Of a stretch of 64,000 bases of DNA, positions 8,171 to 53,646 are shown in pieces. The translations under genes were made by a program, and so were the position numbers. Position 1 is the first letter of the stretch, and each line of letters starts with the position of its first letter. The notes below the pieces were generated by a model that was not told the DNA's origin, ran no database searches, and worked only from the letters and a program-made list of their open reading frames with translations. This DNA comes from an uncultured Chloroflexia bacterium (GTDB taxonomy: Bacteria; Chloroflexota; Limnocylindria; QHBO01), in contig CAVYGE010000002.1 in NCBI GenBank assembly GCA_963767985.1, forward strand, positions 457,217-521,216, written 5' to 3'.

Positions 8171-10557
8171 ATGGGCTTCGGAACGACGAACGGTCACGCC
8201 AACGGCAACGGCAGCTCGGGCAGCGGCAAGGCCGATTACACCCCGATCTGGCCGATGGTGCCCGGCACGCGCGAGATCGGCGTCACGATCAACGGCAAGC
8301 AGCTCCAGGTCGAGGAGGGGCAGACGATCCTCCAGGCCTGCCGCGTCCTGGGAATCGACGTCCCGACGCTGTGCTACGAGCCGAAGCTCGCACCGTACGG
8401 CGCCTGCCGCATCTGCGCGGTCGAGGTCGAAGGACGCGACGACACGCCGATCAGCTGCGGGACGGCCAGATCGAGGAGGGGATGGTCATCACCACCCACT
8501 CCGAGCGGGTCATCGAGAACCGGCGCATGGTCCTCGAGCTCATCTTCAGCGACCATGACGCCTACTGCCTCCCTCCGTGCCAGTTCAAGTGCCCGACCCG
8601 CGTCGACATCCCGGGCTACCTGAAGCAGAACACCCTGGGCAACTGGGAGGAGGCGACGCGCATCCTCAAGCGCTCGCTTCCGTTCCCGGCCATCCTCGGC
8701 CGCGTCTGCCCCGCCCCGTGCGAGACCCACTGCCGGCGCGAGGAGGTCGACACCGCCATCGCGATCCGCGACTCGCATCGCTACTGCGCCGACCGCGTCC
8801 TCGAGGTGGACGCCCCCGCCCCGATCCCGTGGCCGAAGGATCCCGCCACCGGCCGGAAGGTCGCGATCATCGGCGCCGGCCCCGCCGGCATGTCGGTCGC
8901 GTACTACCTCCAGCTGCGCGGGCACCAGTGCGACGTGTACGAGGCCGATCCGGAGCAGGGCGGCATGCTGCGCTACGGCATCCCCCAGTACCGACTGCCC
9001 AAGGGATGGATGGATCGCGAGCTGAACCACGTCTGGGAGCTGGGGGCGACCTTCAAGCCGAACATGCGGCTGGGGCGCGACTTCCACCTCGGCGACATCA
9101 TCGACGACTACGACGCCATCTACGTCGGCATCGGCTGCTACAAGCCGAACGAGCTCGGGATCCCGGGCGAAGAGGCCGATGGAACCGTCAACGCCCTGGA
9201 GAACCTCTACAACTCGACCCGCGGCATTCCGGTGCCGCGGCTCAAGGACGCGCGCGTGGTGGTCATCGGCGGTGGCTTCACTGCCATCGACTGCACCCGG
9301 ACCAGCGTCCGGCAGGGCGCGGCCGAGGTCACGCTCGTCTATCGCCGCGACCTCAAGGACATGCCCGCTGCCGACGAGGTGCACGAGGCGATCGAGGAGG
9401 GCGCGCGAGTCATCTTCCAGGCCGCACCGACGCGCATCGTGACCGACGCAGATGACAAGGTGAACGGCGTCGAGTTCCAGCGCATGAAGCTCGGCGAGCC
9501 CGATGCGCAGGGCCGCCGCCGGCCCGAGCCGATGCCGGGCACCGAGTTCATCGTCGAGTGCGACACCGTGCTCGGCGCCATCGGCCAGGGGCCGGAGCTG
9601 TCGTGGATCGAGTCCGAGCCGGAGGAGATCCGCGCCGGCCTCGAGGTCTCACGCCGCGGAACGCTGGAGGCGGAGGAGCACATCTTCCGCACCAACGTCC
9701 CGAAGATCTTCGCGTCGGGCGACGTGCGAACCGGCGCTGCCACGGTGGTCGAGGCGATCGGCGAGGGCCGCCGAGCCAGCTACGCAATGGACTACTGGCT
9801 GCGCGGGCACGACCTGGACGACCCGCAGGTCCGCCGCATCGTGACCGAGCCGCAGCCGAACTTCCTGACCATCGTGCCCTTCACCGACGACGTGAAGGAG
9901 CCGCGGGCGATCATGGGCAAGCAGGAGGCCGACGAGCGCCGCACGAACTTCAACGAGTACGAGTTCGGCTACACCGGCGACCAGGCCATGGCCGAGGCCG
10001 GGCGCTGCCTGCAGTGCACCTGCGAGGCGATCGGCCACTGCGACCTGCGCGAGGCCGCAATCGAGTACGAGACGACGCTCAACATGGCGATCGACGAGCG
10101 CTCGATCCAGGACAACCCGTACGTCGGGGTCAACCACGGCTACGGCCGGGACGAGACGCACTCCTTCATCCTGCGCGACTACTCCCGCTGCATCGACTGC
10201 GGCCGCTGCGCCCAGGTCTGCAAGGAGATCGTGGGCGCCGGCTGCTACGACTTCATCGGCAAGGGCTTCGACTCCCTGGTCACCACCGCCGACTTCGTGT
10301 CACTCAACGAGACGCCGTGTGTCTCCTGCGGACGGTGCGCCGAGACCTGCCCGGTCGGCGCGCTCATGCCGCGGCCGCGCATCCTCGAGACCTACCAGCT
10401 CGACGTCTCCCGCTGCATCTTCTGCGGCATCTGCGCCGACGCCTGCCCGTACGACGCGCTGCGCTGCGGACCCGAGTTCGAGTTCAGCGAGTACCAGCGC
10501 GACCTGCCGATGCTGGACATCCTCGAGATGAGTGACCGGGAGCGCCCCACCCGCTAG
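8171..10557 (+). CDS. fusion protein: NuoG-type [2Fe-2S] domain + GltD/NfnB-like FAD-NAD(P)H module + NuoG-type [4Fe-4S] domains + NuoI C-terminal half (apparent 1-nt deletion ~8455-8466)
   Basis: 8270-8460: ..VTINGKQLQVEEGQTILQACRVLGIDVPTLCYEPKLAPYGACRICAVEVEG.. 8566-9810: ..CPTRVDIPGYL..GRVCPAPCETHC..KVAIIGAGPAGMSVAYYL..VVVIGGGFTAIDC..LVYRR..IFASGDV.. ~10000-10368: ..CLQCTCEAIGHCDLRE..RCIDCGRCAQVC..CVSCGRCAETCPVGAL.. 10369-10554: ..ETYQLDVSRCIFCGICADACPYDALRCGPEFEFSEYQRDLPMLDI.. Confidence 0.8.
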
Positions 10558-11649: not shown

Positions 11650-11955
11650 ATGGGGCTCACCGGCTATCTCATCGTGTCCGTGATGCTCTTCGGCATCGGC
11701 GCCTTCGGCTTCATGGCGCGGCGCAACGCGATCCTCATGCTCATCAGCATCGAGCTCATGTTCAACGCGGTGAACCTCAGCCTCGTGGCATTCAATGCCT
11801 TCCTCCCTCCCGACGCCAATGCGGGTGCCGTCTTCGCGCTGATGATCATGGCCGTCGCCGCGGCCGAGGTGACGGTGGGGCTCGCCCTGGTCATCGCCAT
11901 CATCCGCACGCGTCAGACCGCCGAGGTCGACCAGTACTCCGATCTGAAGGAGTAG
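11650..11955 (+). CDS. nuoK: NADH-quinone oxidoreductase subunit K
   Basis: 101-aa, 3-TM protein ..RRNAILMLISIELMFNAVNLSLVAF..AAAEVTVGLALV... Confidence 0.9.
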   Translation: MGLTGYLIVSVMLFGIGAFGFMARRNAILMLISIELMFNAVNLSLVAFNAFLPPDANAGAVFALMIMAVAAAEVTVGLALVIAIIRTRQTAEVDQYSDLKE

Positions 11956-11959
11956 GCCG

Positions 11960-14188
11960 ATGCCCATCGAGCTGCTGATCGCCCTCATTCCCGCGTTGCC
12001 CGTGGCGGGCTTCCTGTTCGCGGTGCTCGTCGGGCCGCGCTTCGACCACATCCCGTCTCACGGCCACCACGCGGATCACGACGACGACGACGACCACGCC
12101 GACGCGGCACACGGCAAGCAGGCGCACGCGACCGACGATTCGGCGTATCGAACGGTCCCCAGCGAGGAGGAGCAACGGGCGACGAGCCCCCATGCCGGGC
12201 ATGCCGACGACCTCGCCAATGCCGAGGGCGCCGATGGCGTGATTCCCACCGACATGCGCGACGGCCTCGGCCAGGCCGGCCATGTGGCTCCGGGCGCCGA
12301 GCGTCCGCGCTATCGCTCGTGGATCGTGCCGACCGGCCTGGTGGGCCTGATGTGGGTCTTCTCGATGATCGTGTTCGCGAACGTGATCTTCGGCCACAAC
12401 GAGTACGAGGTCACGATCTACGAGTGGATCGCGTCGGGCGACTTCGTCATCGAGATCAGCTTCCTGGTCGACTCACTGACGGCGATGCTCCTGCTGGTGG
12501 TGAGCACCGTCGGCTTCCTCGTCCACATCTACAGCATCGGCTACATGGATGGCGACCGCGGATTCTGGCGCTTCTTCGCCTACCTCAACCTCTTCATGTT
12601 CAGCATGCTGCTGCTCATCCTGGGCGACAACTTCCTCATGCTGTATGTCGGCTGGGAGGCGGTCGGCCTGTGCAGCTACGCGCTCATCGGCTTCTGGTAC
12701 AAGAAGCCGTCGGCCGCGGGAGCCGCCAAGAAGGCGTTCATCGTCAACCGGGTCGGCGACTTCGGCTTCGGCCTCGGCATCATGATGCTGTGGGTGAACC
12801 TCGGGACCCTGAGCTTCCGCGAGGTGTTCGCGACCATCGGGAGCCTGGACGAGACGACGATCACGGTCATCGCCCTGCTGCTGTTCGCCGGCGCCGTCGG
12901 CAAGAGCGCCCAGTTCCCGCTCCACGTGTGGCTGCCGGACGCCATGGAGGGTCCGACCCCGGTCAGCGCCCTCATCCATGCCGCGACCATGGTCAACGCC
13001 GGCGTCTACCTCGTCGCGCGCGCCAACCCGATCTTCGCCGAGGCCCCGGCCGCGATGTGGACCGTGGCGATCATCGGCGTCTTCACCGCCATCTTCGCGG
13101 CGGCCATCGCGCTGACGCAGAACGACATCAAGAAGGTCCTCGCCTACTCGACCGTCAGCCAGCTGGCGTACATGTTCTTCGCGCTCGGCATCGGCGCGTG
13201 GGTTGCCGCGATCTTCCACCTCGTCAGCCACGGCTTCTTCAAGGGGCTGCTGTTCATGGGCTCCGGCTCGGTCATCCATGGCGCAGGCGGCGAGCAGGAC
13301 ATGCGGTACATGGGCAACCTGCGGGCGAAGATGCGCTGGACCTACGTGACCATGGTCATCGGCTCGCTGGCGCTGGCCGGCATCCCGATCTTCTCCGGCT
13401 TCTTCAGCAAGGACGAGATCCTGGCCGAGGCCTTCAACCGCGGCTACCTCGTGTTCTACCTCGTCGGCACCGTCGTCGCCTTCATGACCGCCTTCTACAC
13501 GTTCCGAATGATCTTCATGACGTTCTGGGGCGAGTGGCGTGGGCCGAAGGCAGCCTGGGACCACATCCACGAGAGCGCGCCGACCATGGTGGCGCCGCTG
13601 GCCATCCTCGCCGTGCCCACCATCCTGGCGGGTCTCGTCCTCGGCATCCCGCCGGAGGGCGGCATCATCCACGGCTGGCTCGAGGAGGTCTTCCACACGG
13701 CCGAGGAGTCGCACGCGGGCGTCCTGCCCGGCTCGCTGCTCGACGGCTACATCACGAAGGGCGAGGAGCACCACTTCGAGATCTTCGGCCTCGGCGGCCT
13801 GCTCCTGCTCATCGGGGCGCTGGTCGCGGTCGCTGGCGTCGTGCTGGCGTATCGCTGGTACGTGCAGCGCCCGGAGTCGGCGGCGCGCTTCGTGGATCGC
13901 ATCCCGCTCGGCCTCGGTCCGGGGATGTATCGCGCCAGCGTGAACAAGTACTACGTCGATGACATCTACCAGCTCGTCTGGTCTCGTGGCGGTGTGCTGA
14001 TCAGCAACGCCCTGTGGTGGTTCGACGCCAAGGTGATCGACGGCGCGGTGAACGGCGCCGGCTGGCTGGCCCGAACCATCGGCGGCGGCCTGCGGAAGAT
14101 CCAGACCGGCCGGGTCGAGAACTACGGGCTCGGGATCGCGGCCGGCCTGGTGCTGGTCCTGGTGGCCCTGGCCACGGTGGTGCGCTGA
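11960..14188 (+). CDS. nuoL: NADH-quinone oxidoreductase subunit L, with a ~90-aa His/Asp-rich insertion after TM1
   Basis: Antiporter-like core (..WEAVGLCSYALIGFWY..GKSAQFPLHVWLPDAMEGPTPVSALIHAATMV..) and long C-terminal arm region. Insertion at 12044-12319. Confidence 0.92.
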   Translation: MPIELLIALIPALPVAGFLFAVLVGPRFDHIPSHGHHADHDDDDDHADAAHGKQAHATDDSAYRTVPSEEEQRATSPHAGHADDLANAEGADGVIPTDMRDGLGQAGHVAPGAERPRYRSWIVPTGLVGLMWVFSMIVFANVIFGHNEYEVTIYEWIASGDFVIEISFLVDSLTAMLLLVVSTVGFLVHIYSIGYMDGDRGFWRFFAYLNLFMFSMLLLILGDNFLMLYVGWEAVGLCSYALIGFWYKKPSAAGAAKKAFIVNRVGDFGFGLGIMMLWVNLGTLSFREVFATIGSLDETTITVIALLLFAGAVGKSAQFPLHVWLPDAMEGPTPVSALIHAATMVNAGVYLVARANPIFAEAPAAMWTVAIIGVFTAIFAAAIALTQNDIKKVLAYSTVSQLAYMFFALGIGAWVAAIFHLVSHGFFKGLLFMGSGSVIHGAGGEQDMRYMGNLRAKMRWTYVTMVIGSLALAGIPIFSGFFSKDEILAEAFNRGYLVFYLVGTVVAFMTAFYTFRMIFMTFWGEWRGPKAAWDHIHESAPTMVAPLAILAVPTILAGLVLGIPPEGGIIHGWLEEVFHTAEESHAGVLPGSLLDGYITKGEEHHFEIFGLGGLLLLIGALVAVAGVVLAYRWYVQRPESAARFVDRIPLGLGPGMYRASVNKYYVDDIYQLVWSRGGVLISNALWWFDAKVIDGAVNGAGWLARTIGGGLRKIQTGRVENYGLGIAAGLVLVLVALATVVR

Positions 14189-15708
14189 TGGAAGGCGCGC
14201 CTGTGCTGTCCCTCATCGTCTTCACGCCGCTGGTCGGCGTGCTGCTGCTGCTCCTCGTCCCCGGATCGAACCACCGCGCCGTGCGATGGATCGCGCTGCT
14301 GGCGGCGCTGGCCAGCCTGGCGTTCAGCCTGGTCCTGCTCGGCTACGACACCGGCGGCAGCGAGTTCCAGTACCGCGAGGATCTCGCCTGGATCGATGCC
14401 TTCGGCATGCGCTACACCCTCGGCGTCGACGGCCTGTCGGTCGTGCTCGTTCTCCTGACCACCGTCCTCAGCGTGGTCGCGATGTTCTACTCCTGGGAGC
14501 CGATCCAGGCGCGGGTGAAGGAGTACTACATCTCGCTCCTGCTGCTCATGGTCGGCATGCTCGGCGTGTTCGTGGCGCTCGACCTCTTCCTGTTCTACGT
14601 CTTCTGGGAGATCAGCCTCTTCCCGATGTACGTGATCATCGGCGTGTGGGGAGGTCCGCGGCGCATCTACGCCACGGTGAAGTTCGTCCTCTACACCCTT
14701 GTCGGCTCGCTGCTCATGCTCGTCGCCATCCTGGCCGTGGCCATCGCCCACGCGGCCAGCGGCCAGCCATTCACGTTCAGCTACGAGGCGCTGCGCGGCT
14801 TCGCCTACGCCGATACGCTCCAGGCGCTCGCGTTCGTCGCCTTCTTCCTGGCCTTCGCCATCAAGGTGCCGATGTGGCCGTTCCACACCTGGCTGCCCGA
14901 TGCTCACGTCGAGGCGCCGACCGCGGGGTCGATCATCCTGGCGGGCGTCATGCTGAAGCTCGGCGGCTACGGCTTCCTGCGCTTCAGCCTGCCGCTGCTC
15001 CCGGACGCGGCCGTCAGCTTCGCGCCGATCATCATCGGCCTCGCGATCGTGGCGATCATCTACGGCGGCCTGGTGGCCATGGTCCAGCCCGACATGAAGA
15101 AGCTCGTGGCGTACTCGAGCGTGAGCCACATGGGATTCGTCATGCTCGGGGCGTTCGTCTTCAACGAGCAGGGGCTGCAGGGCGCGATCTACCAGATGAT
15201 CAGCCACGGCATCACGACCGGAGCGCTGTTCCTCCTGGTCGGGATCCTCTACGAGCAGACCCACGATCGGCTCATCGCCCACATGGGCGGGCTCAACGCC
15301 CGCGTCCCGCGCTATGCCGCGATGTTCGGCCTTTTCACGTTCGCCAGCATCGGCCTGCCCGGGCTCTCCGGGTTCGTCGGCGAGTTCCTCGTGATCCTGG
15401 GAGCGTTCCGCGCCAACGGCCTGATCGCCGCGGCGGCCATGGTCGTCGTGATCATCAGCGCGGTCTACATGCTGTGGATGTTCCAGCGCGTCTTCTTCAC
15501 CGTGCCGTCCGACTGGATGCGCCAGTTCTGGCCGACGCTGCGCGACATCAATCGCAACGAGTGGATCGCGCTGGCGCCGCTCATCGTGCTCGTGGTGGCG
15601 CTGGGCGTGTACCCCGGGCCGGTGCTCGAGATCATCGCCGGACCGGTGGATCGCATCATCGATGCCGTCAACGGCGCCGGCCTGACCGGCTTCGGGCCAC
15701 TGTGGTGA
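14188..15708 (+). CDS. nuoM: NADH-quinone oxidoreductase subunit M
   Basis: TGATG overlap with nuoL. ..FVFWEISLFPMY..KVPMWPFHTWLPDAHVEAPTAGSIILAGVMLKLGGYG..KKLVAYSSVSHMGF... Confidence 0.92.
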   Translation: MEGAPVLSLIVFTPLVGVLLLLLVPGSNHRAVRWIALLAALASLAFSLVLLGYDTGGSEFQYREDLAWIDAFGMRYTLGVDGLSVVLVLLTTVLSVVAMFYSWEPIQARVKEYYISLLLLMVGMLGVFVALDLFLFYVFWEISLFPMYVIIGVWGGPRRIYATVKFVLYTLVGSLLMLVAILAVAIAHAASGQPFTFSYEALRGFAYADTLQALAFVAFFLAFAIKVPMWPFHTWLPDAHVEAPTAGSIILAGVMLKLGGYGFLRFSLPLLPDAAVSFAPIIIGLAIVAIIYGGLVAMVQPDMKKLVAYSSVSHMGFVMLGAFVFNEQGLQGAIYQMISHGITTGALFLLVGILYEQTHDRLIAHMGGLNARVPRYAAMFGLFTFASIGLPGLSGFVGEFLVILGAFRANGLIAAAAMVVVIISAVYMLWMFQRVFFTVPSDWMRQFWPTLRDINRNEWIALAPLIVLVVALGVYPGPVLEIIAGPVDRIIDAVNGAGLTGFGPLW

Positions 15709-15709
15709 G

Positions 15710-17184
15710 GTGGACAGCGTGACCTACGTCGACGATCTCGTCACCCTGCTGCCGGAGCTGCTCCTTGCCGGGCTGATCCTCGCGATCATCACCATCGACC
15801 TGTTCCTGTCGCGCCCGAACAAGTGGCTGCTCACGCCGCTGACCGTCGGCGGGCTGGTACTGGTCGGGGCGGCCTGCGTGGTCGTCTGGGACATCAACGA
15901 GACGGTGTACGCGGGCTTCTACCGCGTCGACGACCTGTCCGTCTTCTTCAAGGCATCCACCGTCGTGATCGGGATCCTGTCGGTGCTCTTCGCACCGGCG
16001 TACCTTGTCGTCCGCCGCATCCCGCTCGGCGAGTTCCACATGATCCTGCTCAGCGCGCTGCTGGGCATGTTCATCCTCGCCTCGAGCAGCGACCTGATCA
16101 CCCTCTTCCTGGGACTCGAGCTGATGACGATGCCGTCGTACCTGCTCACCGGACTGCACAAGACCGACCGCTACAGCAACGAGGGCGGGTTGAAGTACTT
16201 CCTTCTCGGGAGCTTCGCGAGCGCCATCGTGCTGTTCGGCATCAGCTGGCTGTACGGCATCACCGGCACCACGAACATCGCCGAGATCGCGGCCTCCGGG
16301 CTCGAGGGTCGGATGGGCGGACCGCTCCTGGTCGCGCTCGGCTTCCTGGTCGTGGGCAGCACCTTCAAGATCGCGGCCGTCCCCTTCCACTACTGGACAC
16401 CGGACGCATACCAGGGCGCGCCGACGCCGATCACCGGCTTCCTGTCGGTCGGCCCGAAGCTCGGAGCATTCGCGCTGCTGGTCCGGGTCTTCGCCGAGGC
16501 GTTGGCGCCGATCCGAGCCGACTGGCTCGGGATCTTCCTCGTGCTGACCGTGCTCACGATGACGGTGGGCAACGTCGTGGCGCTGACCCAGGTCAACGTC
16601 AAGCGCATGCTCGCCTACTCGAGCATCGCGCACACCGGCTACATCATGGTCGGCCTGGCCGCCTTCGCGAACGCGCCCGATGCCGATGCCGCGGCCCAGG
16701 GCATCGAGTCGGTCCTGTTCTACGTGCTGGGCTATGCGGTCATGAACATCGCGGCGTTCGCGGTGGTCGGCATGCTCCAGCGCGACACGCGTCGGTTCGG
16801 CGGCCTGAACTCGTTCGCCGGGCTCGGGTCACGCTCCCCTGCCCGCGCGGCGGCGATGGGCGTGCTCATGCTCAGCCTGACCGGGATCCCGCCGACCGTC
16901 GGATTCTTCGCGAAGCTCTACGTCCTGCTCGCGGCCGTCGATGCCGGGCTCGCATGGCTGGCCGTGATCCTGGTCCTCAACGCCGCCATGGCCGCCTTCT
17001 ACTACCTGCGCGTGGTCGTCTACATGTACATGCGGGATCCCGAGGACCGGATCCGGCCCCGCTCGACACCTCTCCCTTCGGCACGGTGGCACTGGCGCTG
17101 TCGGTGGCCGGCGTCGTCATCCTGGGTCTCTTCCCGGGCGCCGTCCTGAGCCTGATCGAGGTGAGCGCGGCGAGCCTCTTCTGA
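15710..17184 (+). CDS. nuoN: NADH-quinone oxidoreductase subunit N (apparent 1-nt deletion near the CCCC run 17056-17059)
   Basis: ..FKIAAVPFHYWTPDAYQGAPTPITGFLSVGPK..KRMLAYSSIAHTGY.. The last ~40 codons (..PLDTSPFGTVALALSVAGVVILGLFPGAVLSLIEVSAASLF) continue in another frame. Confidence 0.88.
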
Positions 17185-17188
17185 GCCG

Positions 17189-18694
17189 ATGAGCCCCACC
17201 AAGGCCGACGATGCGCTCGGGGCCGCGGCGGCCGCGCTGCTCGGTGACCGCCGCCTGATCATCGCCACCAACCGCGGCCCGATCACGTTCGCCACGACCG
17301 CCGACGGCTCGCTCCGGCCACGTCGCGGGTCCGGTGGGCTGGTCACCGCGCTCGGTCAGGTGGGCCGTCACGTCCCCGTGACGTGGGTGGCCGCCGCGAT
17401 GAGCGAAGGTGATCGACGCGCCGCCGCCGACCCGAAGCTGCTGCGCCAGGCCGCCGGTGATGACGACGCGCTGCGGCTGCGGTTCGCGACCGTCGAGCGC
17501 TCGGTGTACGAGCAGGCGTACAACGTCATCGCGAATCCCCTGCTGTGGTTCCTGCAGCATCAGATGTGGGACCTTCCCGAGCGCCCGGTCATCGACGCGG
17601 CGACGATGCGCGCCTGGGAACGTGGGTATCTCGCCATGAACGAGGCCGTCGCGGCCGCAGTCCTGGCCCAGGCCCGCGGCAACCCGGAGCCACGCATCAT
17701 GCTGCACGACTACCACCTGTACACGGCGGCCGAGCCGATCCGGCGCTCGCGACCCAAGGCGGTGCTCAGCCACTTCACCCACATCCCGTGGCCGCCGTCG
17801 AGCATCTGGCTGGCGATCGCCCCGGCCATCCGTGAGGGGATCGCCACCGGGTTGCTCGCCAATGATGTCGTCGGCTTCCAGACTGAGCGCTACGCCCACA
17901 ACTTCATGCGGATGGTCGAGACGTTCGTCCCCGACGCAAAGGTCGATTACGACGCGTGGACGGTGCGCCGTCGACGCCGCACGACCCACGTGCGGCACTA
18001 TCCGATCAGCATCGACGTTGAGGCGACGACACGGATCGCGACCTCGCGCGCCGCGCGGCGGCGAGCGGACCAGCTGCTGGGCGCCACCCGCGAACGGGTG
18101 ATCGTGCGGGTCGACCGGCTCGAGCCGTCGAAGAACATCGTGCGCGGCTTTCTCGCGTACGAGGCGCTGCTGCAGCGCAATCCACGTTTGCGGGGCCGGG
18201 TCAGCTTCCTCGCGTTCCTCGTCCCGTCTCGCACCGGGCTGCGGGAGTACGGCGACTACGGGCGCAGCGTGCAGAACGAGGTCGACCGGATCAACGCGCG
18301 GTTCGGCCGGGCCGGCTGGCGTCCGATCCAGATCTTCTACGAGAACGACTACGCCCAGGCGCTCGCCGGGCTGTCGATCGCCGACGTGGTGCTCGTCAAC
18401 CCCCTGGTCGACGGCATGAACCTCGTTGCCAAGGAGGCCGTCGTCGTCTCCGAGCGCGACGCGGTTCTCGTCCTGTCGGAGTCGGCCGGGGCCTTCGACC
18501 AGATGGCCGACGGCGTCCTGGCGGTGGCCTCGGCCGACGTGCTCGGCACCTCGCAGGCCCTGCTGGAGGCGCTCGAGATGCCGATCGAGGAGCGCCGGCG
18601 GCGACTCGCGAAGCTGCGGCGCGGCGTGGAGCGCGAGGACATCACGTGGTGGCTGCGACGCCAGCTCGAGGATCTCAGCGCGCTCAAGCGCTGA
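17189..18694 (+). CDS. otsA: trehalose-6-phosphate synthase-like glycosyltransferase (GT20)
   Basis: Starts 4 nt after the nuoN stop. ..ATNRGPITF..SGGLVTAL..WFLQH..DYHLY..VDRLEPSKNI..NPLVDGMNLVAKE.. is OtsA-like. Confidence 0.8.
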   Translation: MSPTKADDALGAAAAALLGDRRLIIATNRGPITFATTADGSLRPRRGSGGLVTALGQVGRHVPVTWVAAAMSEGDRRAAADPKLLRQAAGDDDALRLRFATVERSVYEQAYNVIANPLLWFLQHQMWDLPERPVIDAATMRAWERGYLAMNEAVAAAVLAQARGNPEPRIMLHDYHLYTAAEPIRRSRPKAVLSHFTHIPWPPSSIWLAIAPAIREGIATGLLANDVVGFQTERYAHNFMRMVETFVPDAKVDYDAWTVRRRRRTTHVRHYPISIDVEATTRIATSRAARRRADQLLGATRERVIVRVDRLEPSKNIVRGFLAYEALLQRNPRLRGRVSFLAFLVPSRTGLREYGDYGRSVQNEVDRINARFGRAGWRPIQIFYENDYAQALAGLSIADVVLVNPLVDGMNLVAKEAVVVSERDAVLVLSESAGAFDQMADGVLAVASADVLGTSQALLEALEMPIEERRRRLAKLRRGVEREDITWWLRRQLEDLSALKR

Positions 18695-23042: not shown

Positions 23043-23861
23043 CTACGGCGCGGCCAACGACTCCAGCAGCTGAGCGGCCATCTCGGGGTCGTCGAGAACG
23101 ACATCCGCTGCCTCGCGCACGGCGGGCGGCGTCTCGCCGGCGGCACCGGCCACGCCGATGATCACTGCATCGAGGGACCCGCGCGATCGGTGCTCGGCGA
23201 CGACGGCGAACATGTCGAGGTCGGTCACGTCGTCGCCCATGACGACGACGCCGCGCAGGCCGTACCGCGCGATCACCCGGCGCGCGGCGACGCCCTTGTC
23301 TCCGGCGTCCCGCGGCCGAAGCTCGACGCTCATCCGCCCATGTCGCAGGTCGACGCCATGCTCTTCGGCTCGTCCCAGTGCCGCGAGTACGGAGGCACGC
23401 GCCGCATCGGGCTCTGGCGCGTTCCGATAGTGGACGGTCGCCGATAGCCCCTTGTGCTCGACGTTCACGCCCGGCAGCTCGGGCACCTGCGCAAGGATCC
23501 GATCGAGCCGTTCCCGGATGGCATCCGATCCGGGCGCGGGCTCCGGGGCCCCGGCCCCCGGCTCGAGCCATTCGGTGCCGTGGTTCCCGACCACCAGCAG
23601 TCCCGGAACACCCACCATCGACCGCGCGTCGAGGGGCGCACGCCCCGTGATGAACGCCACCACCGCCAGCTGCCGCGCCAGCCGTTCGAGCGCGGGGCCC
23701 GCCCCCGGGACCAGGCCGGCGGCCGCCGGATCGGAAACGATCGGCGACAGGGTCCCATCGAAGTCAGTGAGAAGACCGGCGGGCTCGCGGGCCAGCGCGG
23801 GCCGCGCCAGCGCCAGGGCACGCGACAGCGCGCCGTCGGCCCGGCGGCTAGACTCGGCCAT
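23043..23861 (-). CDS. otsB: trehalose-6-phosphate phosphatase (HAD-IIB)
   Basis: ..GLLTDFDGTLSPIV.., ..AFITGR.., ..GNHG.., ..GDDVTD.. HAD motifs in OtsB order. Confidence 0.75.
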   Translation of the reverse strand: MAESSRRADGALSRALALARPALAREPAGLLTDFDGTLSPIVSDPAAAGLVPGAGPALERLARQLAVVAFITGRAPLDARSMVGVPGLLVVGNHGTEWLEPGAGAPEPAPGSDAIRERLDRILAQVPELPGVNVEHKGLSATVHYRNAPEPDAARASVLAALGRAEEHGVDLRHGRMSVELRPRDAGDKGVAARRVIARYGLRGVVVMGDDVTDLDMFAVVAEHRSRGSLDAVIIGVAGAAGETPPAVREAADVVLDDPEMAAQLLESLAAP

Positions 23862-28759: not shown

Positions 28760-29986
28760 GTGGCATCCAAGAACGGCAAGGCCGCCGGTAATGGCCATCG
28801 ACCCACCGACGGCAAGGTCCGCGTCGCCATCGTCGGCGCCGGGAACTGCGCCAGCAGCCTCGTCCAGGGGCGATATCACTACGCGGACGCGAAGGACGGC
28901 GACTTCATCCCCGGCCTGATGCACGTCAACCTCGGTGGCTATCACGTCCGTGACATCGAGTTCGTGGCAGCGTTCGACGTCGACCGCAACAAGGTCGGCA
29001 AGGACCTCTCCGAGGCGATCTTCGTCGAGCCGAACAACACCTTCAAGTTCAGCGACGTTCCACACCTCGGCGTCCCGGTCGAGCGCGGGATGACGCACGA
29101 CGGGCTGGGCAAGTACCTCTCCGAGATCATCGAGAAGGCACCCGGACCGACCGCCGACATCGTGCAGATCCTCAAGGATCGCGAGGTCGACGTCATGGTC
29201 AGCTACCTGCCGGTGGGGTCCGAGCAGGCGACGAAGTGGTACGCCGAGCAGGCGATCCAGGCCGGCGTCGCCTTCGTGAACGCGATCCCGGTCTTCATCG
29301 GGCGCGAGCCGTACTGGCAGCGACGATTCGCCGAGGCTGGCCTCCCGATCATCGGCGACGACATCAAGAGCCAGGTCGGCGCCACGATCACGCACCGGGT
29401 GCTGACGCGGCTGTTCATGGACCGCGGCGTGAAGATCGACCGCACCTACCAGCTCAACTTCGGCGGCAACACCGACTTCCTGAACATGCTGGAGCGCGAG
29501 CGGCTGGAGTCGAAGAAGATCAGCAAGACGAACGCGGTCACGAGCATGATGGACTACGAGATCGGCGAGGACGATGTGCATGTCGGACCGTCCGACTACG
29601 TCCCGTGGCTCAAGGACCGCAAGTGGTGCCACATCCGCATGGAGGGCACGACCTACGGCGACGTTCCCCTCAACCTCGAGCTCAAGCTGGAGGTGTGGGA
29701 CAGCCCGAACAGCGCCGGTGTGATCACCGACGCCATCCGCTGCGCGAAGCTGGGTCTCGACCGTGGGCTGTCCGGCACCCTCGTCGCGCCGTCGAGCTAC
29801 TTCATGAAGTCACCGCCGATGCAGATCCACGACGACATCGCGCACAACCGGGTGGAGGACTTCATCCGCGGCGAGGACAACGAGACCCTCGTCGGCACGG
29901 AGAAGCTCCCGACCAGGCGGACGAAGAAGCTGGCGGGGGCGAACAGCAAGGTCAAGGCCCGGGCCGCCGCCGCCGAGGTCCTCTAG
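28760..29986 (+). CDS. ino1: myo-inositol-1-phosphate synthase
   Basis: ..[62 protein letters not shown].. matches the bacterial/archaeal Ino1 pattern. Confidence 0.88.
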
Positions 29987-39298: not shown

Positions 39299-42200
39299 CT
39301 ACTCGGCAGGCGCGGACTCCCGCACGCGGCGCCGGGACACGAGCCCGACGAGCGTCGGCCCCCACCAGCGGCCGCGCACCGACCACGCCATGGCCAGCCC
39401 CGCCACCACCAGGCCGGCCACGAGCTTGAGGGTCGATGCGCTCACGAGGTCGCCGCGGTCTCCCTGCGGGGGATCGGGGAACTGGAAGCCGAAGTTCCAC
39501 GGTGGCAGGGCCCGGGCCGCGTTGATGTACCAGTCGGGCATCGGCAGGGCGGCGCCCAGGGGGAAGACGAGGATGCCGGCGACGACGACCAGGGCCAGGT
39601 AGCCGGCCGCCAGCTCCCTCCACGCCGGGCGCCGCAGAAGCTCGTCCACGACGTAGGCGATGGCGATCAGCGCGAAGATCAGCGCCGTGAGGTAGTGGTA
39701 GGCGAAGGTCGCGCGCTCGATGCGCGTCCACGGCGCGAGCTGGAACGCGAACGCCGCGACGATGAGCACGAGCGCGGCTGATCGGCGCTTCCAGGCCAGG
39801 ACCGCACATGCGGCAATGGCAGGCACCCCGGCCCAGAACAGGATCGGGTTGCCGCCGTTGTAGATGGCGGCGATCTGGCTCATGTCGAAGCTGCCGCTGT
39901 AGAACCAGGTCGGCTTCAGGGCGAGCGGCCAGCTCCACCACGGCGATGAGCTGGCATGCCCGGCGGTGAGGCCGAAGTGGTACCCGAACATCTGGGCGTG
40001 GAGCTCCTCGACCGACCAGCCGTAGCCGGGCCCGGCGTCGGGTCCCGCGAAGACGTGCCCGAGCTCGAGGTACGGGATGTAGCTCAGTCCATAGACGGTG
40101 AGCGGGATCACGAGCAGGCAGGCACCGATCCACGACCACGCGAATCCGCCCATCTCGCCGGGCTGCTGCCACCGCGCGTCGGAGCGGGGGTCGCGCAGGG
40201 ACAGGATGGCGCGCCACAGGACGAGGAGCCCCGCGATGCCGAGCATCAGCCACGCCGGCCACCCGACCTGGGCGCCGCGTGCCAGGATCGCGAACAGGAC
40301 CTCGACGGCGCCGTCCGCCGATCCGGGCGACTCGACCTGCGTGAACGCCAGCGCGAACGCAAGCCCGACCGCGCCAAGGACGACCCCGGTCGCCGGCAGG
40401 GCACGACGCGCGCTGGCCAGGTCGAGACGGATCGGCCGAGCGTGCACGATCGCGAGCGCGATGCCGAACGCCAGCAGCATGACGGCCAGGAATGGCCACG
40501 GCGCGTCCAGCCCGCCGACGACGGTGGCCATCGCCACCAGCCCGACCAGCAGGAGACGACCGAGGTTCGAGCGCGCCAGCACGAGGATCCAGATCCCCGC
40601 CAGCGCGTAGAAGCCAACCCATTTCGTCGCCGCCGCCAGACCGATGAGGACGCCGACGAGCGGCAGAACCCACCATGCGCTGCGCGCCCAGCGCCCCGAC
40701 CAGATCTGCCAGAAGGCGAGGTAGGCGCCGACGATGAAGACGGCGACGAAGATGTCGTTCATCGCGATCCGGCTCATGACGTAGCTCATGCCGTCGATGG
40801 CCACGAACGCCGCGGCCAGGAACGCGATGCGGCGTCGCCCGAACATCGTGGCCGCCAGCAGGTAGACGAGCCCGACGAGGATCGCGCCGAAGACCACGCC
40901 GGCGAGTCGCCACGCGAAGGCATTGCTGCCCGCGTCGAGTCGGACGAGCGCGCCGTCGCCGGTGCTGAGGATGAGGCGACCGTGGTCATCGGCCTGGCTG
41001 TCGGTGCTGATGTCGAAGGCCATGGCCAGGGCGGGCGCGTCGAGCGCCGTCTCGTCGAAGGCCGCCAGGCCCGAGCTCGTATCGCCCCGATCGTCGAGAT
41101 GCGGCTCGATGGGCCACACCACCGGCTCTCCCGCCGCGGATGTGCCGGCGATGTACACGAGCCTGGCCACGAACTGGTCGCCGATGAGGGACGGCGCGCC
41201 GGGGAGGGGAACGACGTCGGACAGGGACTGCGCATCGGCATCGATCTCGGCCAGGCCGCCGTCGACCGCCGGATGCTCGTCGTTGGCGGCAACCGGGCCG
41301 GTGAGCACCAGGAGCTGCTGGTCATCGCCGCTGCCGCGCGCGATCAGCGGCCCGACCAGCGCGGGTTCGAGCGTGATCACGCCGTGCTCCACGTCCTCGG
41401 CGTCGCCGACGGTCTCGAGCGTGGTGCTGTCGAGGAAGACGACGGCGTTGCGCCCCGGTTCGGTTGCGGCCACGAAGCTCGGCTCTTCGCCATCGGCGCG
41501 CACCCAGGCCACACCACCGTACGCACCGGCGCCGATGGCCCGCACTTCGTCCGTCGCCCGATCGAGGATCGCGACGCCATCCGGCCCGCGCAGCAGGGTG
41601 ACGTCGGCGTCGCGCGGCACGACGATCTCGATCACACCGGTCAGCCCGACCTCGATCGGCGGTCCCTGGGGCGGCGCGCGGCCGTCCGGGGAGGCCAGCA
41701 GTCCGGCGAGCTCATACGTCTCCACCGTGCCCGCGTCCGCGCGACCGACGAGCAGCCGCGGCGCCCCCGGGTCGAAGGCCAATGTGGCGACTGGCCCTCC
41801 GGCATCCCAACGGGCGACCTCACCCCCGTTGGCGGCGTCACTGGCCACGATCGTGGTGCCCCCCTGCGGCACCGTGAACACCAGCGAGCTCTCCCAGCCC
41901 AGCGACGAGCGGGCCGGCGCCACCGCGATCGCCGGCGATGGCCCCTCGATCGTGGTGCTGCCGACCACCTTGTTCGGATCCGCCACCAGGATTCCGCCCG
42001 CGATGAGGTACTTGGCCAGCATCGGGTGCGTCCACTCGTACACGTCCCGGTCCCAGCCGTTCTGCCAGTTGCTGATCCATTCCGTTGCGGAGCGGGCGTG
42101 GTAGACCTCGTCGAAATGGTCGCCGCGCGGGACGTCGAGCCGCCACAGGCGGAAGACGAGCGCGAAGGCGACCAGCAGGAGGAGGAGCGCCGCGTCGCGC

Positions 42201-43856
42201 CGATCCAGCCTGCGGCGAGGCTCGTGCAGGTAGGCGTCCGCGGGATCCGGTCGAAGCCAGCCAAGCCCGTGGCTGGTCGGGGGCGCGGGCCGCCCCGCGA
42301 CGCCCGGACCGGCCGACCATTCGGCGGCGACCGGCGCACGCGGCTCCTCGGGGGCCCGCGCCTCGACCCGTCCGTCCGCCGGCCGTGCGAGCATGGCGAG
42401 CGAGCGCCACGCCACGACCAGCAGCAGAACCACGCTGAGCAGGGCGAGTGACCAGATGCCCGTGTCGGTGAGCAGGGTCCTCGTCAGCAGCTCGCTCTGC
42501 GGCATCGGCAGACCGTTCGCCCCGGGGTTGATGAGGCGCCCCGCGAATGACCAGTCCTCGGTGTAGACCCAGTAGATGTTCGCGAAGAACGAGAGGCTGA
42601 GCCCGCCATAGATCCACGGCCAGAGCCGCCCGGAGAGGAGGAGCGGGGCGGCGAGGGCGAGGGCCGGGAAGAGGTAGCGCTCGTGGACGCGCGTCGGGAG
42701 CACGAAGAAGGCGATCGCGATCAGCAGCGACGCAACGAGCACGCCGCGGAGGTCGTCCCGGCGCGCCACCTGGACCAGCGCGATGACGGCGATGACGGCG
42801 AACAGCACGGTGCCGACCTGCTGCCAGGTCAGTGCGGTCGAGCCGATGACGATCCCGACCGTCGTGTCGTCACCCCAGGTCAGGGTGTCGCCAAGACCGG
42901 TCCACGGATTGCGCCACAGGTTGAAGGCGTTGATCGAGAAGCCGGTGTACGTGCTCGCCGCCTCGAGGAACTTGCCGATCAGGCTGGTGGTCGGGTCCGG
43001 CTCCGGCAGCCCCAGGAACCCGGTCGGGTCGCCGCCCGCCAGGGGTGCGTAGAGGCCCATCCCGAACGGCAGCATGAGTAGCGTGAGCGTGGCGACGCCA
43101 GCCGCCAGCGAGGTCACGACGCGGAGCACGTCGCGCTGCCCGTCGTGCGCCGGGTCCGACGATCGCCCGATGAGGTGGCGCCGCAGGCCGACGATCGCGA
43201 CGATCGGGATCAGGAACGCGAACTGGAACTTCACGAGCATGGCCAGCACGGCGCCCACGGCCGCGACCTCGGTCCAGCCACGCGCCAGCGCGTAGATCGT
43301 GCCGAGGAGGACGAGCGTGCCGACCGAATCGATCTGGCCCCACACCGCCGAGTCGAAGATCGTCCCGGGGTTGAACAGGTAGATCGTGGCCACCGCCAGC
43401 CCGAGCGTCTCGGGGCGAACGCTCCCGAAGGACCGATGGATGAGCTGGCCGCCCCAGCGGCGGGCGATGACGAACAGCAGCCAGGCGACACCGACGTCGG
43501 CGAGGATGGCCGGGATCTTCACGAGGCCCGCCGGTGGCGTCGATCCCGACCAGCGGCGCGAGCAGGCCGCCGATGCCGCCGAGCAGCCACAGGACGTAGA
43601 GGTACCCCGGCGGATAGTCGCTGAAGTAGCTCGCCTCGTAGAATGCGCCTGGCCCACCACTTGCGAGGCGCTGGCCCCAGGCGGTGAAGTCGCCGATATC
43701 GATCGCGAATCCACTCAGCGGCAGGTAGACACCGGCGATGAAGACGCGCAGCGCAAGACCGAGGACAAGGATGGCCGCGAGGATCGTGCCGGGGTCGAGC
43801 CGTCGAATGGATTCGAGAATCCCCGCGCCCCGTTGCCCGACGGGGCCACGGTTCAT
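39299..43856 (-). CDS. giant (~1,500 aa) polytopic glycosyltransferase: N-terminal GT-C module fused to a PMT-type (GT39-like) module with a ~350-aa insertion (apparent frameshift ~43526-43530; start 43856 or 43922)
   Basis: The N-terminus (MNRGPVGQRGAGILES..ILAAILVLGLALRVFIAG..YFSDYPPGYLYVLW..) is in a different frame from the rest (..LVKIPAILADVGVAWLLF..). PMT-like ..GDHFDEVYHARSA..EWTHPMLAKYLIAGG.. and C-terminal ..GHASSSPWWSWPLALKPTWFY..IYNGGNPILFWAG... Confidence 0.7.
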
Positions 43857-52221: not shown

Positions 52222-53646
52222 TCACTCGGAGTAGATCATCTCCCGCACCGCGCTGATCTCCCGACGCATCTCGTCGTTCTCCTGCAGCTCGCGCGCGATC
52301 TTGTCGTAGGCGTGCAGGACGGTCGAGTGGTCGCGACCGCCCAGCTCGGCGCCGATGCGCAGGAGGCTGATGTCGGTCTCCTCGCGGATGAGGAACATCG
52401 CGATCTGGCGCGGGACCACGATGGCCCGGTCCCGCTTGCTGCTGCGCAGCTGGTCGAGGTTGACACCGTAGTAGTCGGCGACGGCGCGCACGATGCGCTG
52501 GGGAGTGATCGAGCGCTTGCGCGGGTTGTACATCACGTTGCTCAGCACGGCGCTGGCGAGCTCGATGTTCACCGGCATGCCGCTCATGCTGGCGTAGGCG
52601 ACGACTCGGTTGAGCGCGCCCTCGAGCTCTCGCACGTTGCTCACGACCTTGCGGGCGATGAAGTCGATCACCTCGGACGGGATGAGGTGGAGCTGGTCCT
52701 CCGCCTTGCTGCGCAGGATCGCGATGCGCGTCTCGAGGTCGGGGGGCGTGAGATCGGCGATGAGCCCCCACTCGAACCTGCTGCGGAGCCGCTCCTCCAG
52801 GGTCGTGATCGCCTTCGGCGGGCGGTCGGAGCTGAGGACGACCTGCTTCCCGGCCTCGTGGATGGCGTTGAAGGTGTGGAAGAACTCTTCCTGTGTCCGT
52901 TCGCGATCGGCGATGAACTGGATGTCGTCGATCAGGAGCACGTCGATGCGCCGATATCGGCCGCGGAAGTCCTCCATCTTCTGCTCCCGGATGGAGTTGA
53001 TGAAGTCGTTCGTGAACTTCTCGCTGGTCGCATACAGGATCCGCTTGCGCGGGAACTTGCCGGCCACCGCGTTGCCGATGGCATGCATGAGATGCGTCTT
53101 GCCCAGGCCGACTCCGCCGTACAGGAACAGCGGGTTGTAGGCATGGCCCGGCCGCTCGGCGACCGAGAGCGCCGCGGCGTGCGCAAGCCGGTTCGCCGAC
53201 CCGACGATGAAGTTGTTGAACGTGTAGCGGGTGTTCAGGTTGATCGCGTTGCCGCCGGCGCTGAGCGGCGGCATCTGGACCCGGGCCTCCTCGTCGACCT
53301 GCTCGGGCAGGGGACCGGATGCATCGGCGACGACGAACTCGAGCTGGACGGAGCCGCCGACGACGCGAGCCAGCGTCTGGCTGATCAGGGGGCGGTAGCG
53401 GTTGTCGAGCCAATCACGCGCGAATCCGTTCGGGGCAGAGATCCGGTAGCGGTTGTCGTCGATCTCGACGAGCTCGGTGTCCTTCAGCCAGGTCTCGAAG
53501 TTGGCCGGTGAGAGTGAGACCTGCAGCTCGCCGAGGGCGGCGCGCCATACCTGATTGGCATCCATCAAACGATGTGCTCCGAACCGATCTGCGGGGCTTC
53601 CCGCGTGGGCTGATGAGTCCGCCTCCGGGCCGAGATCGGACGTCAT
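52222..53646 (-). CDS. dnaA: chromosomal replication initiator DnaA (alternative start 53565)
   Basis: ..[46 protein letters not shown].. and C-terminal ..[33 protein letters not shown]... Confidence 0.95.

Follow-up and report, generated by a model that had tools for sequence, protein, structure and literature searches.

We analyzed a 64,000-nucleotide stretch of contig CAVYGE010000002.1 from an uncultured Chloroflexia bacterium (the window), in which a complex I operon runs in the order nuoA, nuoB, nuoC, nuoD, nuoH, three unusual genes (5953-10557), an opposite-strand open reading frame (ORF), and nuoJ to nuoN, ending at about 17184. The last of the unusual genes, the 8171-10557 ORF, had drawn attention in an initial annotation as a NuoG-like ORF with a GltD-type module inside it, and this observation was confirmed, far beyond chance. 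We propose that the operon probably encodes an NAD(P)H:quinone complex I of Candidatus Limnocylindria, of which the 8171-10557 product would be the third subunit of an unusual electron-input module, accepting NADPH at an FAD and operating without electron bifurcation. By alignment, each of the three proteins of this module corresponds to a homologous subunit of the NfnC/NfnB/NfnA (StnA/B/C) transhydrogenase, the module being a trimmed form: the A-type subunit lacks the FdhF-like domain, the B-type subunit lacks the N-terminal and B3/B4 domains, one Cys of the B1/N3 site is lost, and the predicted [2Fe-2S] site of the C-type subunit is re-ligated. What appears to be new is that nuoI is split in two and that the module lies between nuoH and nuoJ without an intact nuoI.

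The reading frame of the 8171-10557 ORF changes once. Frame 2, from the ATG at 8171, encodes CYEPKLAPYGACRICAVEV, and frame 1, from about 8467, encodes CLPPCQFKCP, GRVCPAPCETHC, IIGAGPAG, VIGGGFTAIDC, LVYRR, SGDVRTG, CLQCTCEAIGHCDLRE, RCIDCGRCAQVC, and CVSCGRCAETCPVGAL; all of the motifs quoted in the initial annotation were found in these translations. Once two surplus bases at 8464-8468 are removed, the resulting protein is arranged as a NuoG-type [2Fe-2S] domain, a GltD/NfnL-type insert with iron-sulfur (FeS), FAD, and NADPH regions, a His/Cys cluster region, and a 2x[4Fe-4S] domain. Pfam searches with the joined protein returned Fer2_4 (residues 34-111, E 4e-18), a fragment of NADH-G_4Fe-4S_3, the NuoG His-cluster motif (118-134), Fer4_20 (134-212, E 3e-19), Pyr_redox_2 (230-533, E 4e-28), and a Fer4_Nqo3/Fer4_7 dicluster (667-765), and there was no molybdopterin family among the best 25 of the 26 Pfam families matched. 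These matches bear out the description of a NuoG-type N-terminal [2Fe-2S] domain followed by a GltD-type insert, lacking the molybdopterin-like domain, within a complex I operon, and they include the two families, Pyr_redox_2 and Fer4_20, on whose recovery that description had been made to depend. The possibility that two genes are present here was not borne out, as relatives are single ORFs of 794-890 residues that cover 95-100% of the query. The gene end had been misplaced at 10368; the stop codon lies at 10557, and the 60 residues left out are the C-terminal half of NuoI.

Residues 33-757 align continuously to residues 2-699 of NfnA from Caldicellulosiruptor saccharolyticus (Csac; PDB 9BOV, chain 9bov_A; E 1.6e-167, ~40% identity), followed among solved proteins by StnC from Sporomusa ovata (PDB 8OH5, chain 8oh5_C; E 9e-151) and NfnA from Thermococcus sibiricus (9n5u_A; E 7e-140). 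Every Cys motif, the FAD and NADPH motifs, the YRR, and R239 of StnC are kept, whereas NfnL/NfnB of NfnSL, GltD, and dihydropyrimidine dehydrogenase matched much lower and over residues 134-546 only. The nearest kin is therefore not a NuoG with an insertion, as had been supposed, but NfnA/StnC of the Bfu-type transhydrogenases. NfnABC and StnABC are Bfu-type NADH-dependent ferredoxin:NADP+ oxidoreductases. A [2Fe-2S] domain, a GltD/NfnL-type module, and a 2x[4Fe-4S] domain in one chain is exactly the solved and published NfnA/StnC layout, so that the GltD module in a NuoG-like protein is no new domain combination (PMC10482914, PMC11829005). The likeness covers the order of domains over ~700 residues, the insertion of the GltD module at the His-cluster motif, and the NfnB/NfnC-like partners. 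Homology ends exactly at the start of the ~450-residue FdhF-like domain, which in NfnA/StnC is pterin-free, carries the A5 [4Fe-4S] cluster, and mediates tetramer formation; here, the chain stops 60 residues past the ferredoxin-like domain, and half of NuoI stands where the FdhF-like domain and A5 would be. The genes also differ from those of NfnABC/StnABC in being embedded in a nuo operon, and the acceptor is therefore presumably quinone rather than ferredoxin plus NAD+. An AlphaFold2 model of a 798-residue homologue (P0001; 53-sequence alignment) had a mean predicted local distance difference test score (pLDDT) of 56.5, with values of 70-95 only in the FAD/NADPH region, and the Foldseek ranking obtained with it repeated the sequence result, with NfnA/StnC as top hits.

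A YRR at the end of strand beta-2, after the second GxGxxA/G fold, is the 2'-phosphate contact of NADPH-type sites. The corresponding stretch, VIGGGFTAIDC...LVYRR, is invariant in 53 relatives and also occurs in the NADPH-using NfnA/StnC, and the 8171-10557 ORF carries this GltD/NfnL-type signature of a predicted NADPH site. NADPH use has been demonstrated experimentally for Csac NfnA, S. ovata StnC, and T. sibiricus NfnA (PMC10482914, PMC11829005), and the YRR shared with these three homologues makes the earlier choice of NADPH as the likely nucleotide a reasonable one. Equally invariant in the 53 relatives is His203 (AIAIRDSHRY, 8776-8805), which aligns with the cluster ligand Lys170 of StnC; the equivalent fourth-ligand position is a Lys in NfnA as well and a Glu in NfnSL. 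Lys170 is a ligand of the first, flavin-proximal [4Fe-4S] cluster of StnC (PMC10482914, PMC11829005). The exchange for an invariant His possibly tunes the potential of the flavin-proximal cluster for another downstream acceptor.

The two partner proteins point to the same family. The fusion gene at 5953-6783, which is intact in relatives (273-281 residues), matched 2Fe-2S_thioredx (E 2e-24) and a Fer4 fragment in Pfam, and both NuoI and NuoE/HoxE/FdsG families in NCBIfam; its NuoE-like domain is nearest to HydC/NfnC among solved proteins. Across 70 relatives, this domain keeps the first two cluster Cys residues and has gained a new invariant one (CxCxxC), while the third canonical Cys is replaced by Asp (40) or Glu (11) or kept as Cys (15), and the fourth is never Cys (G/S/P/H). 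Against the PDB, the NuoF-like protein scored 414 bits with NfnB (9bov_B) and 404 bits with StnB, compared with 245-275 bits for true bacterial NuoF. It aligns just to residues 107-524 of the 584 of NfnB and has no Fer4 or thioredoxin-like Pfam match, the N- and C-terminal add-on domains of the Bfu type being absent. Its N3/B1 motif reads CGK(A/T)(V/I)PC in 70 of 70 relatives, with the second Cys lost and the other three invariant. In the same set, the flavin loop GRGGxG(F/Y), GEET, RPPYP, and GGPxGG do not vary, and N(L/G)(M/F)xADP stands in place of NADEGDPG, with the Glu lost in the window's clade. The 454-residue NuoF-like protein lacks the C-terminal 2x[4Fe-4S] (B3/B4) and N-terminal thioredoxin-like domains of BfuB, and neither a four-Cys B1 nor a four-Cys C1 was found. 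B1-FMN-C1 is the minimal flavobicluster that defines bifurcation in the Bfu family (PMC11829005). Altered B1 and C1 ligands, together with the missing B3/B4 domain, argue against bifurcation. The initial annotation had called NuoE and NuoF degenerate, which holds for the loss of cluster Cys residues but not in the sense of decay: most FMN/NADH motifs are invariant, three Cys plus an Asp, Glu, or Cys are kept, and the ratio of nonsynonymous to synonymous substitution rates (dN/dS) is ~0.16-0.18. Judged by these patterns, the sites look re-ligated, modified rather than abandoned or decaying.

The break in nuoI falls in the loop that joins its two ferredoxin motifs. The N-terminal half (80 residues, with the first CxxCxxCxxxCP) fronts the NuoE-like protein, and the second motif and tail, RPRILETYQLDVSRCIFCGICADACPYDALRCGPEFEF..., form the last 60 residues of the 8171-10557 product. 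Joined, the halves align without gaps to residues 23-128 of Escherichia coli NuoI (E 5e-26) and to plant TYKY; positions 1-73 of TIGR01971 (NuoI) are matched in the fusion protein and 71-112 in the 8171-10557 product. There was no evidence of a duplicated NuoI loop as an insertion scar at the split point, where the halves overlap by ~3 profile positions. Neither the 64-kb window nor any of 83 loci, all from Candidatus Limnocylindria (Chloroflexota), has an intact nuoI; each locus gave two half-matches ~4.3 kb apart, and in none of the 83 did one polypeptide hold both CxxCxxCxxxCP motifs with their extensions. The whole conserved core of NuoI/Nqo9/TYKY, including both motifs, is thus reproduced, but on two polypeptides with a module of ~4.2 kb between them. 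In the 2x[4Fe-4S] ferredoxin fold, each cluster is ligated by three Cys of one motif and one of the other; by this cross-motif ligation, N6a and N6b would both be held across two polypeptides. Neither a split NuoI nor an Nfn-derived NADPH module on complex I turned up in the full-text-searchable literature, which holds few subscription journals, or in papers on Stn, NfnABC, the Bfu family, and complex I phylogenomics.

The three module genes are translationally coupled, and the 8171-10557 ORF is co-oriented with, and embedded among, nuoA to nuoD, nuoH, and nuoJ to nuoN, which include genes for quinone-type NuoB and NuoD. NuoB of a close relative (L005) keeps the N2 ligands CCAIE...C...GCPP; with these and the His and Tyr of NuoD present, the Q-module is predicted to be canonical. 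A genome scan with one genome per species recovered 581 relatives, of which the best 80 were inspected. Essentially all of these 80 came from metagenome-assembled genomes (MAGs) of Candidatus Limnocylindria/Chloroflexota; a few bins carry other labels, yet their proteins are 87-95% identical to the query. Wherever a locus has enough flanking sequence, the order nuoH, NuoI-N/NuoE-like fusion, nuoF-like, 8171-10557 homologue, nuoJ is kept, in both of two clades that share 60% identity. Among 1.84 billion cluster representatives searched, nothing outside the family rose above ~45% identity, the nearest proteins being NfnA/StnC types of 1000-1270 residues. NfnA-like proteins of ~830 residues from other lineages were considered as NuoI-half fusions and rejected, since they end in ...NNIDHCARL. 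ORFs of this kind outside the window (P0252, P0274, P0299, P0313, and P0326; ~812-853 residues) all end in ...NN(I/V)DHCARL, presumably the point at which formate dehydrogenases carry selenocysteine (Sec), and may be full-length Sec-containing, GltD-linked (perhaps NADPH-using) formate dehydrogenases mis-called as truncated.

Three side observations concern the operon itself. The distance from the 8171-10557 homologue to nuoJ ranges from ~0.05 kb to ~7 kb across genomes (for example, L045 and L057), marking a recurrent insertion point that splits the operon. In the window, this interval holds the small opposite-strand ORF, which has a lipoprotein-type signal (...LAAC), no Pfam family, and a 76%-identical counterpart at the same place (12496-12882) in a related locus, L001. 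NuoH is 463 residues long in the 60%-identity clade (L002, 6387-7778, and others) and 336 in the window's clade, the longer form having an N-terminal extension and an insertion of ~85 residues that tblastn left unaligned between residues 262 and 276 of the shorter one.

None of the neighboring families claims the 8171-10557 product outright: it falls below the curated cutoffs for NuoG, NuoF, NuoI, and GltD. For NuoG (TIGR01973), the score was 96.9 against a cutoff of 470.05, over residues 37-131 only. Like NuoG/Nqo3, the protein would be the third N-module subunit, wiring a flavin to NuoI, with an N1b-type [2Fe-2S] site, the His-cluster motif, and an N4-type CxxCxxC...CPVGAL. It differs in that the His-cluster motif, a contiguous HxxxCxxCx5C (N5) in NuoG, is interrupted by the GltD-type module of ~480 residues, in lacking the molybdopterin-like domain, in retaining the second ferredoxin-domain cluster that NuoG has lost, and in that its gene follows nuoH rather than nuoF as in the A-to-N order. 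With GltD and NfnL/NfnB of NfnSL, it shares the Fer4_20 plus Pyr_redox_2 fold and the FAD/NADPH motifs (238-301 bits over residues 134-546), but the GltD scores were 336.5 against 482.95 (TIGR01318) and 217.8 against 447.7 (TIGR01317), and it has neither an NfnS partner nor GltB, with which the stand-alone GltD of ~470 residues is paired; gltB was absent from the surrounding genes, as called or found by ORF scanning. Because its GltD-type module is inserted into another domain, the first Cys pair of that module (RCLQC) follows the flavin domains.

Two published systems come closer in concept. In Nuo-Bfu, a predicted 14-subunit complex I of Geobacter, Planctomycetes, and Nitrospirae, a Bfu-related module likewise replaces NuoEFG, but with a full bifurcating BfuB (B2-B5), a NuoG-like A subunit that has no GltD module, and a separate NuoI (PMC9304861). 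It was proposed to confurcate NADH and ferredoxin, and the type was not reported from Chloroflexota (Schut et al. 2022, PMC9304861). Mbx-like operons of Thermotoga and some proteobacteria also place a GltD-type NAD(P)H flavoprotein on a membrane module of the complex I family (PMC4758237). There, however, the GltD-like protein replaces NuoI in a hydrogenase-like Mbx with NADP+ as the acceptor (Degli Esposti 2015, PMC4758237), whereas the Limnocylindria module keeps a (split) NuoI, NuoE/F-like subunits, and NuoD and NuoB of the quinone-reducing type. Current gene names for the module are 'FAD-dependent oxidoreductase', 'formate dehydrogenase major subunit', and 'NAD(P)H-dependent oxidoreductase subunit E', and with such annotations pipelines will score these genomes as lacking NuoG and NuoI.

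The Nfn/Stn structures suggest how the module could be joined to complex I. There, the productive path runs FAD-A7-A6-A3-A2-A1-B1/FMN (PMC10482914, PMC11829005), and the branch A2-A4-A5 (C2/C1 in Stn) into the FdhF-like domain is a dead end, a non-functional evolutionary remnant (PMC11829005, PMC10482914). The FdhF-like domain forms a cleft that receives the N-terminal domain of NfnC (PMC11829005), and both chain ends, the C-terminus of A and the N-terminus of the C-subunit, thus converge on the FdhF-like domain, which is why we place NuoI, probably, in its stead. The two NuoI halves would reassemble into one 2x[4Fe-4S] fold (N6a/N6b) and staple the module onto NuoB/D/H, and the A2-A4 branch would serve as the exit wire, leading to N6a/N6b, N2, and quinone. 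Electrons would then pass from NADPH to FAD, through two GltD-type [4Fe-4S] clusters (the first His-ligated) and the His/Cys cluster to A2, A4, N6a/N6b, N2, and quinone, driving the normal proton pump. NADH would probably still enter at the FMN of the NuoF-like subunit, via the three-Cys cluster and the [2Fe-2S] cluster, giving two entry flavins. In its full form, a proton-pumping complex I with NADPH as the physiological donor, either alone or beside NADH through a second, gated flavin, and with the ferredoxin N6a/N6b split across two polypeptides, this proposal is a tentative one, to which we give somewhat less than an even chance.

Several points weigh against it. Canonical NuoI takes electrons from the His-ligated N5 and not from an A4-type cluster, and an alternative docking is possible. 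With an altered FMN site (NADE to N(L/G)(M/F)x) and one N3 Cys fewer, NADH entry may be weak or absent. The AlphaFold2 monomer was poor in every FeS region (pLDDT <50, and <35 for residues 603-798); cluster geometry, the NuoI docking site, and the exit route were consequently inferred rather than computed. Physiological flow may be either NADPH oxidation or NADP+ reduction by reverse electron transport, and Limnocylindria genomes may encode a second, canonical complex I elsewhere. All genomes of this type are MAGs, and the function of every member is a predicted one.

That the region could instead be decaying, with frame changes that are real lesions, was raised by the four indels within 5953-8468, but we give this almost no credence. 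Compared with L001, which is 89% identical and is itself frameshifted at another place, the window carries extra bases at 6184, 7518, and 8468. Base 6184/6186, base 7514/7515, and the two bases at 8464/8468 are missing from all matching contigs (90-99% identical) of four independent DNA metagenomes, and all of these contigs have an extra A after 6753 that is missing from the fusion gene in the window; RNA contigs that run across 8464 are likewise without the two surplus bases. Further frame breaks affect nuoB, nuoC, and nuoN, so that at least six genes are broken in 15 kb by one- or two-base indels, and among the 83 related loci such breaks occur solely in long-read-style 'contig_' MAGs, the short-read assemblies being intact. 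The frame change near 8464-8468 is thus an assembly error, and the true genes are 5953-6783, 6786-8151, and 8171-10557. As relatives lack the four indels checked, the source of the window looks like an incompletely polished long-read assembly, in which other ORFs may be broken likewise. All genes tested are under purifying selection, with dN/dS values far below 1. From 9 genomes (36 pairs), dN/dS was 0.12 for nuoH, 0.16 for the fusion gene (NuoE-like domain 0.21, linker 0.08), 0.18 for the nuoF-like gene (FMN domain 0.15, N3 region 0.13), and 0.10 for the whole 8171-10557 ORF, within which it was 0.008 in the GltD-type FeS region, 0.04 in the His/Cys and 2x[4Fe-4S] region, and 0.11 in the FAD/NADPH domains; the NuoI halves gave 0.09-0.10. 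Soil metatranscriptome contigs at ≥90% identity cover the whole of 8171-10557, the one interval for which RNA coverage was obtained, with DNA carry-over in RNA libraries being possible. The intact frames of relatives, the RNA contigs, the restriction of breaks to long-read assemblies, and the low dN/dS led us to reject decay.

A soluble, electron-bifurcating Stn/Nfn-type transhydrogenase whose genes merely lie inside a nuo cluster would account for the best solved relatives of all three proteins, which are NfnABC/StnABC subunits (HydC for the NuoE-like domain). Yet this is very improbable: two of the three proteins each carry a covalently fused NuoI half and the cluster has no other nuoI, the B3/B4 ferredoxin domain and the N-terminal domain of B are gone, and the ligands of C1, which is part of the minimal flavobicluster [B1-FMN-C1], have changed. 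Also gone is the FdhF-like domain, whose deletion in Stn gave no purifiable, functionally active complex (PMC10482914). Several independent results contradict both this explanation and decay. More serious, though unlikely in our view, is the reading of the initial annotation, a complex I that uses NADPH only, with the NuoE/F-like pair as a scaffold, a non-catalytic FMN site, and the GltD-type FAD as the sole nucleotide site. The second N3/B1 Cys missing in all 70 relatives, the replaced flavin-adjacent NADE with its Glu lost in the window's clade, and the largely lost third and fourth Cys of the NuoE-type cluster would all fit, as would the faster divergence between clades of the NuoE-like (30% identity) and NuoF-like (44%) proteins than of the 8171-10557 product (61%). 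On the other side stand the invariant flavin and nucleotide motifs GRGGxG(F/Y), GEET, RPPYP, and GGPxGG, the three invariant N3 Cys, the three invariant Cys plus Asp/Glu/Cys of the NuoE-like domain, and a constraint on the FMN domain and N3 region (0.15 and 0.13) stronger than a mere scaffold would predict. Less probable again is that the FAD serves mainly as an outlet, with NADH (via FMN) or quinol (by reverse transport driven by the proton-motive force) reducing NADP+, which would make the complex a built-in transhydrogenase or a source of NADPH for biosynthesis. The NAD and NADP pools are linked by Nfn/Stn enzymes, which work reversibly (PMC10482914), complex I runs in reverse in chemolithotrophs (PMC4453560), and both flavin sites would, by homology, be wired to one FeS chain. 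But the sequence holds no signal of direction, the ferredoxin-binding B3/B4 domain is absent, and without the bifurcation parts NADH-to-NADP+ transfer would be uncoupled, with the usual cellular ratios driving it the opposite way.

Table 1. Coordinates of the complex I operon in the window and of regions within the 8171-10557 ORF
Feature	Position	Strand	Basis or remark
nuoA	1997-2353	+	tblastn with called genes of L001
nuoB	2347-3004	+	tblastn with L001 genes; frame break ~2510-2523
nuoC	2947-3571	+	tblastn with L001 genes; frame break ~3306-3314
nuoD	3643-4929	+	keeps quinone-site motifs HPSTHG, GYLHRG
nuoH	4930-5940	+	tblastn with L001 genes
NuoI-N/NuoE-like fusion	5953-6783	+	NuoI N-half 5953-~6192; conserved linker of ~43 residues; NuoE/NfnC-like thioredoxin-like domain
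NuoF/NfnB-like flavoprotein subunit, 454 residues	6786-8151	+	Pfam Complex1_51K, SLBB, NADH_4Fe-4S
NfnA/StnC-type subunit with NuoI C-half, 795 residues after removing two bases	8171-10557	+	
Putative [2Fe-2S] domain, N1b/A1 type, Cx10CxxCx13C	8270-8502	+	Fer2_4; four Cys invariant
GltD-type region for two putative [4Fe-4S], H129-x3-C-x3-C-x3-CP and GRVCPAPCETHC, then AIAIRDSH203RY	8521-8805	+	Fer4_20
Rossmann domains, FAD (IIGAGPAG) and NADPH (VIGGGFTAIDC...LVYRR)	8857-9768	+	Pyr_redox_2 E 4e-28; motifs common to NfnA/StnC
RCLQCTCEAIGHCDL (would complete GltD-type and His-ligated clusters) and 2x[4Fe-4S] ferredoxin-like domain, A2/A4 equivalents	10006-10374	+	Fer4_Nqo3/Fer4_7; all Cys invariant
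NuoI C-terminal half, RPRILETYQLDVSRCIFCGICADACPYDALRCGPEFEF..., up to stop codon	10375-10557	+	NuoI alignment, TIGR01971
Small lipoprotein-like ORF, 120 residues	10612-10974	-	between the 8171-10557 ORF and nuoJ
nuoJ	start 11201	+	
nuoK	11650-11955	+	
nuoL	11960-14188	+	
nuoM	14188-15708	+	
nuoN	15710-~17184	+	frame break ~17000 (~16940-17070)

Elsewhere in the window, a trehalose-6-phosphate synthase gene (17189-18694, +) lies directly downstream of the nuo operon, with genes for a trehalose phosphatase (23043-23861, -) and a myo-inositol-1-phosphate synthase (28760-29986, +) farther along; these compatible-solute genes are consistent with a desiccation-exposed soil organism. Divergent dnaA (52222-53646, -; Bac_DnaA E 6e-75) and yidC (54664-55803, +; 60KD_IMP E 9e-50) flank a gap of ~1 kb that may hold rpmH/rnpA and the replication origin region. 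The ORF at 39299-43714 (-), of 1471 residues, combines PIG-U-like and protein O-mannosyltransferase (PMT, PMT_4TMC) domains, a membrane glycosyltransferase fusion that is unusually large for a lineage with genomes of ~2 Mb.

Complex I is usually seen as strictly NADH-linked, and its 11-subunit relatives as linked to ferredoxin or F420. The central functional claim for the Limnocylindria operon is NADPH-driven proton pumping, and, if true, it would make this the first respiratory complex I linked to NADPH. Through a covalently tethered NADPH-type FAD, cells could respire NADPH directly or, with the enzyme running in reverse, make NADPH from quinol, and models of redox balance would change in either direction. 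Its carriers, at least 581 species-level genomes, belong to an abundant, uncultured class of Chloroflexota found mostly in soil. In evolutionary terms, a soluble bifurcating transhydrogenase would have been stripped of its bifurcation parts and re-purposed, its vestigial A2-A4 'remnant' FeS branch being reused as a productive wire into a quinone-reducing proton pump, and the core subunit NuoI split to serve as a two-point staple.

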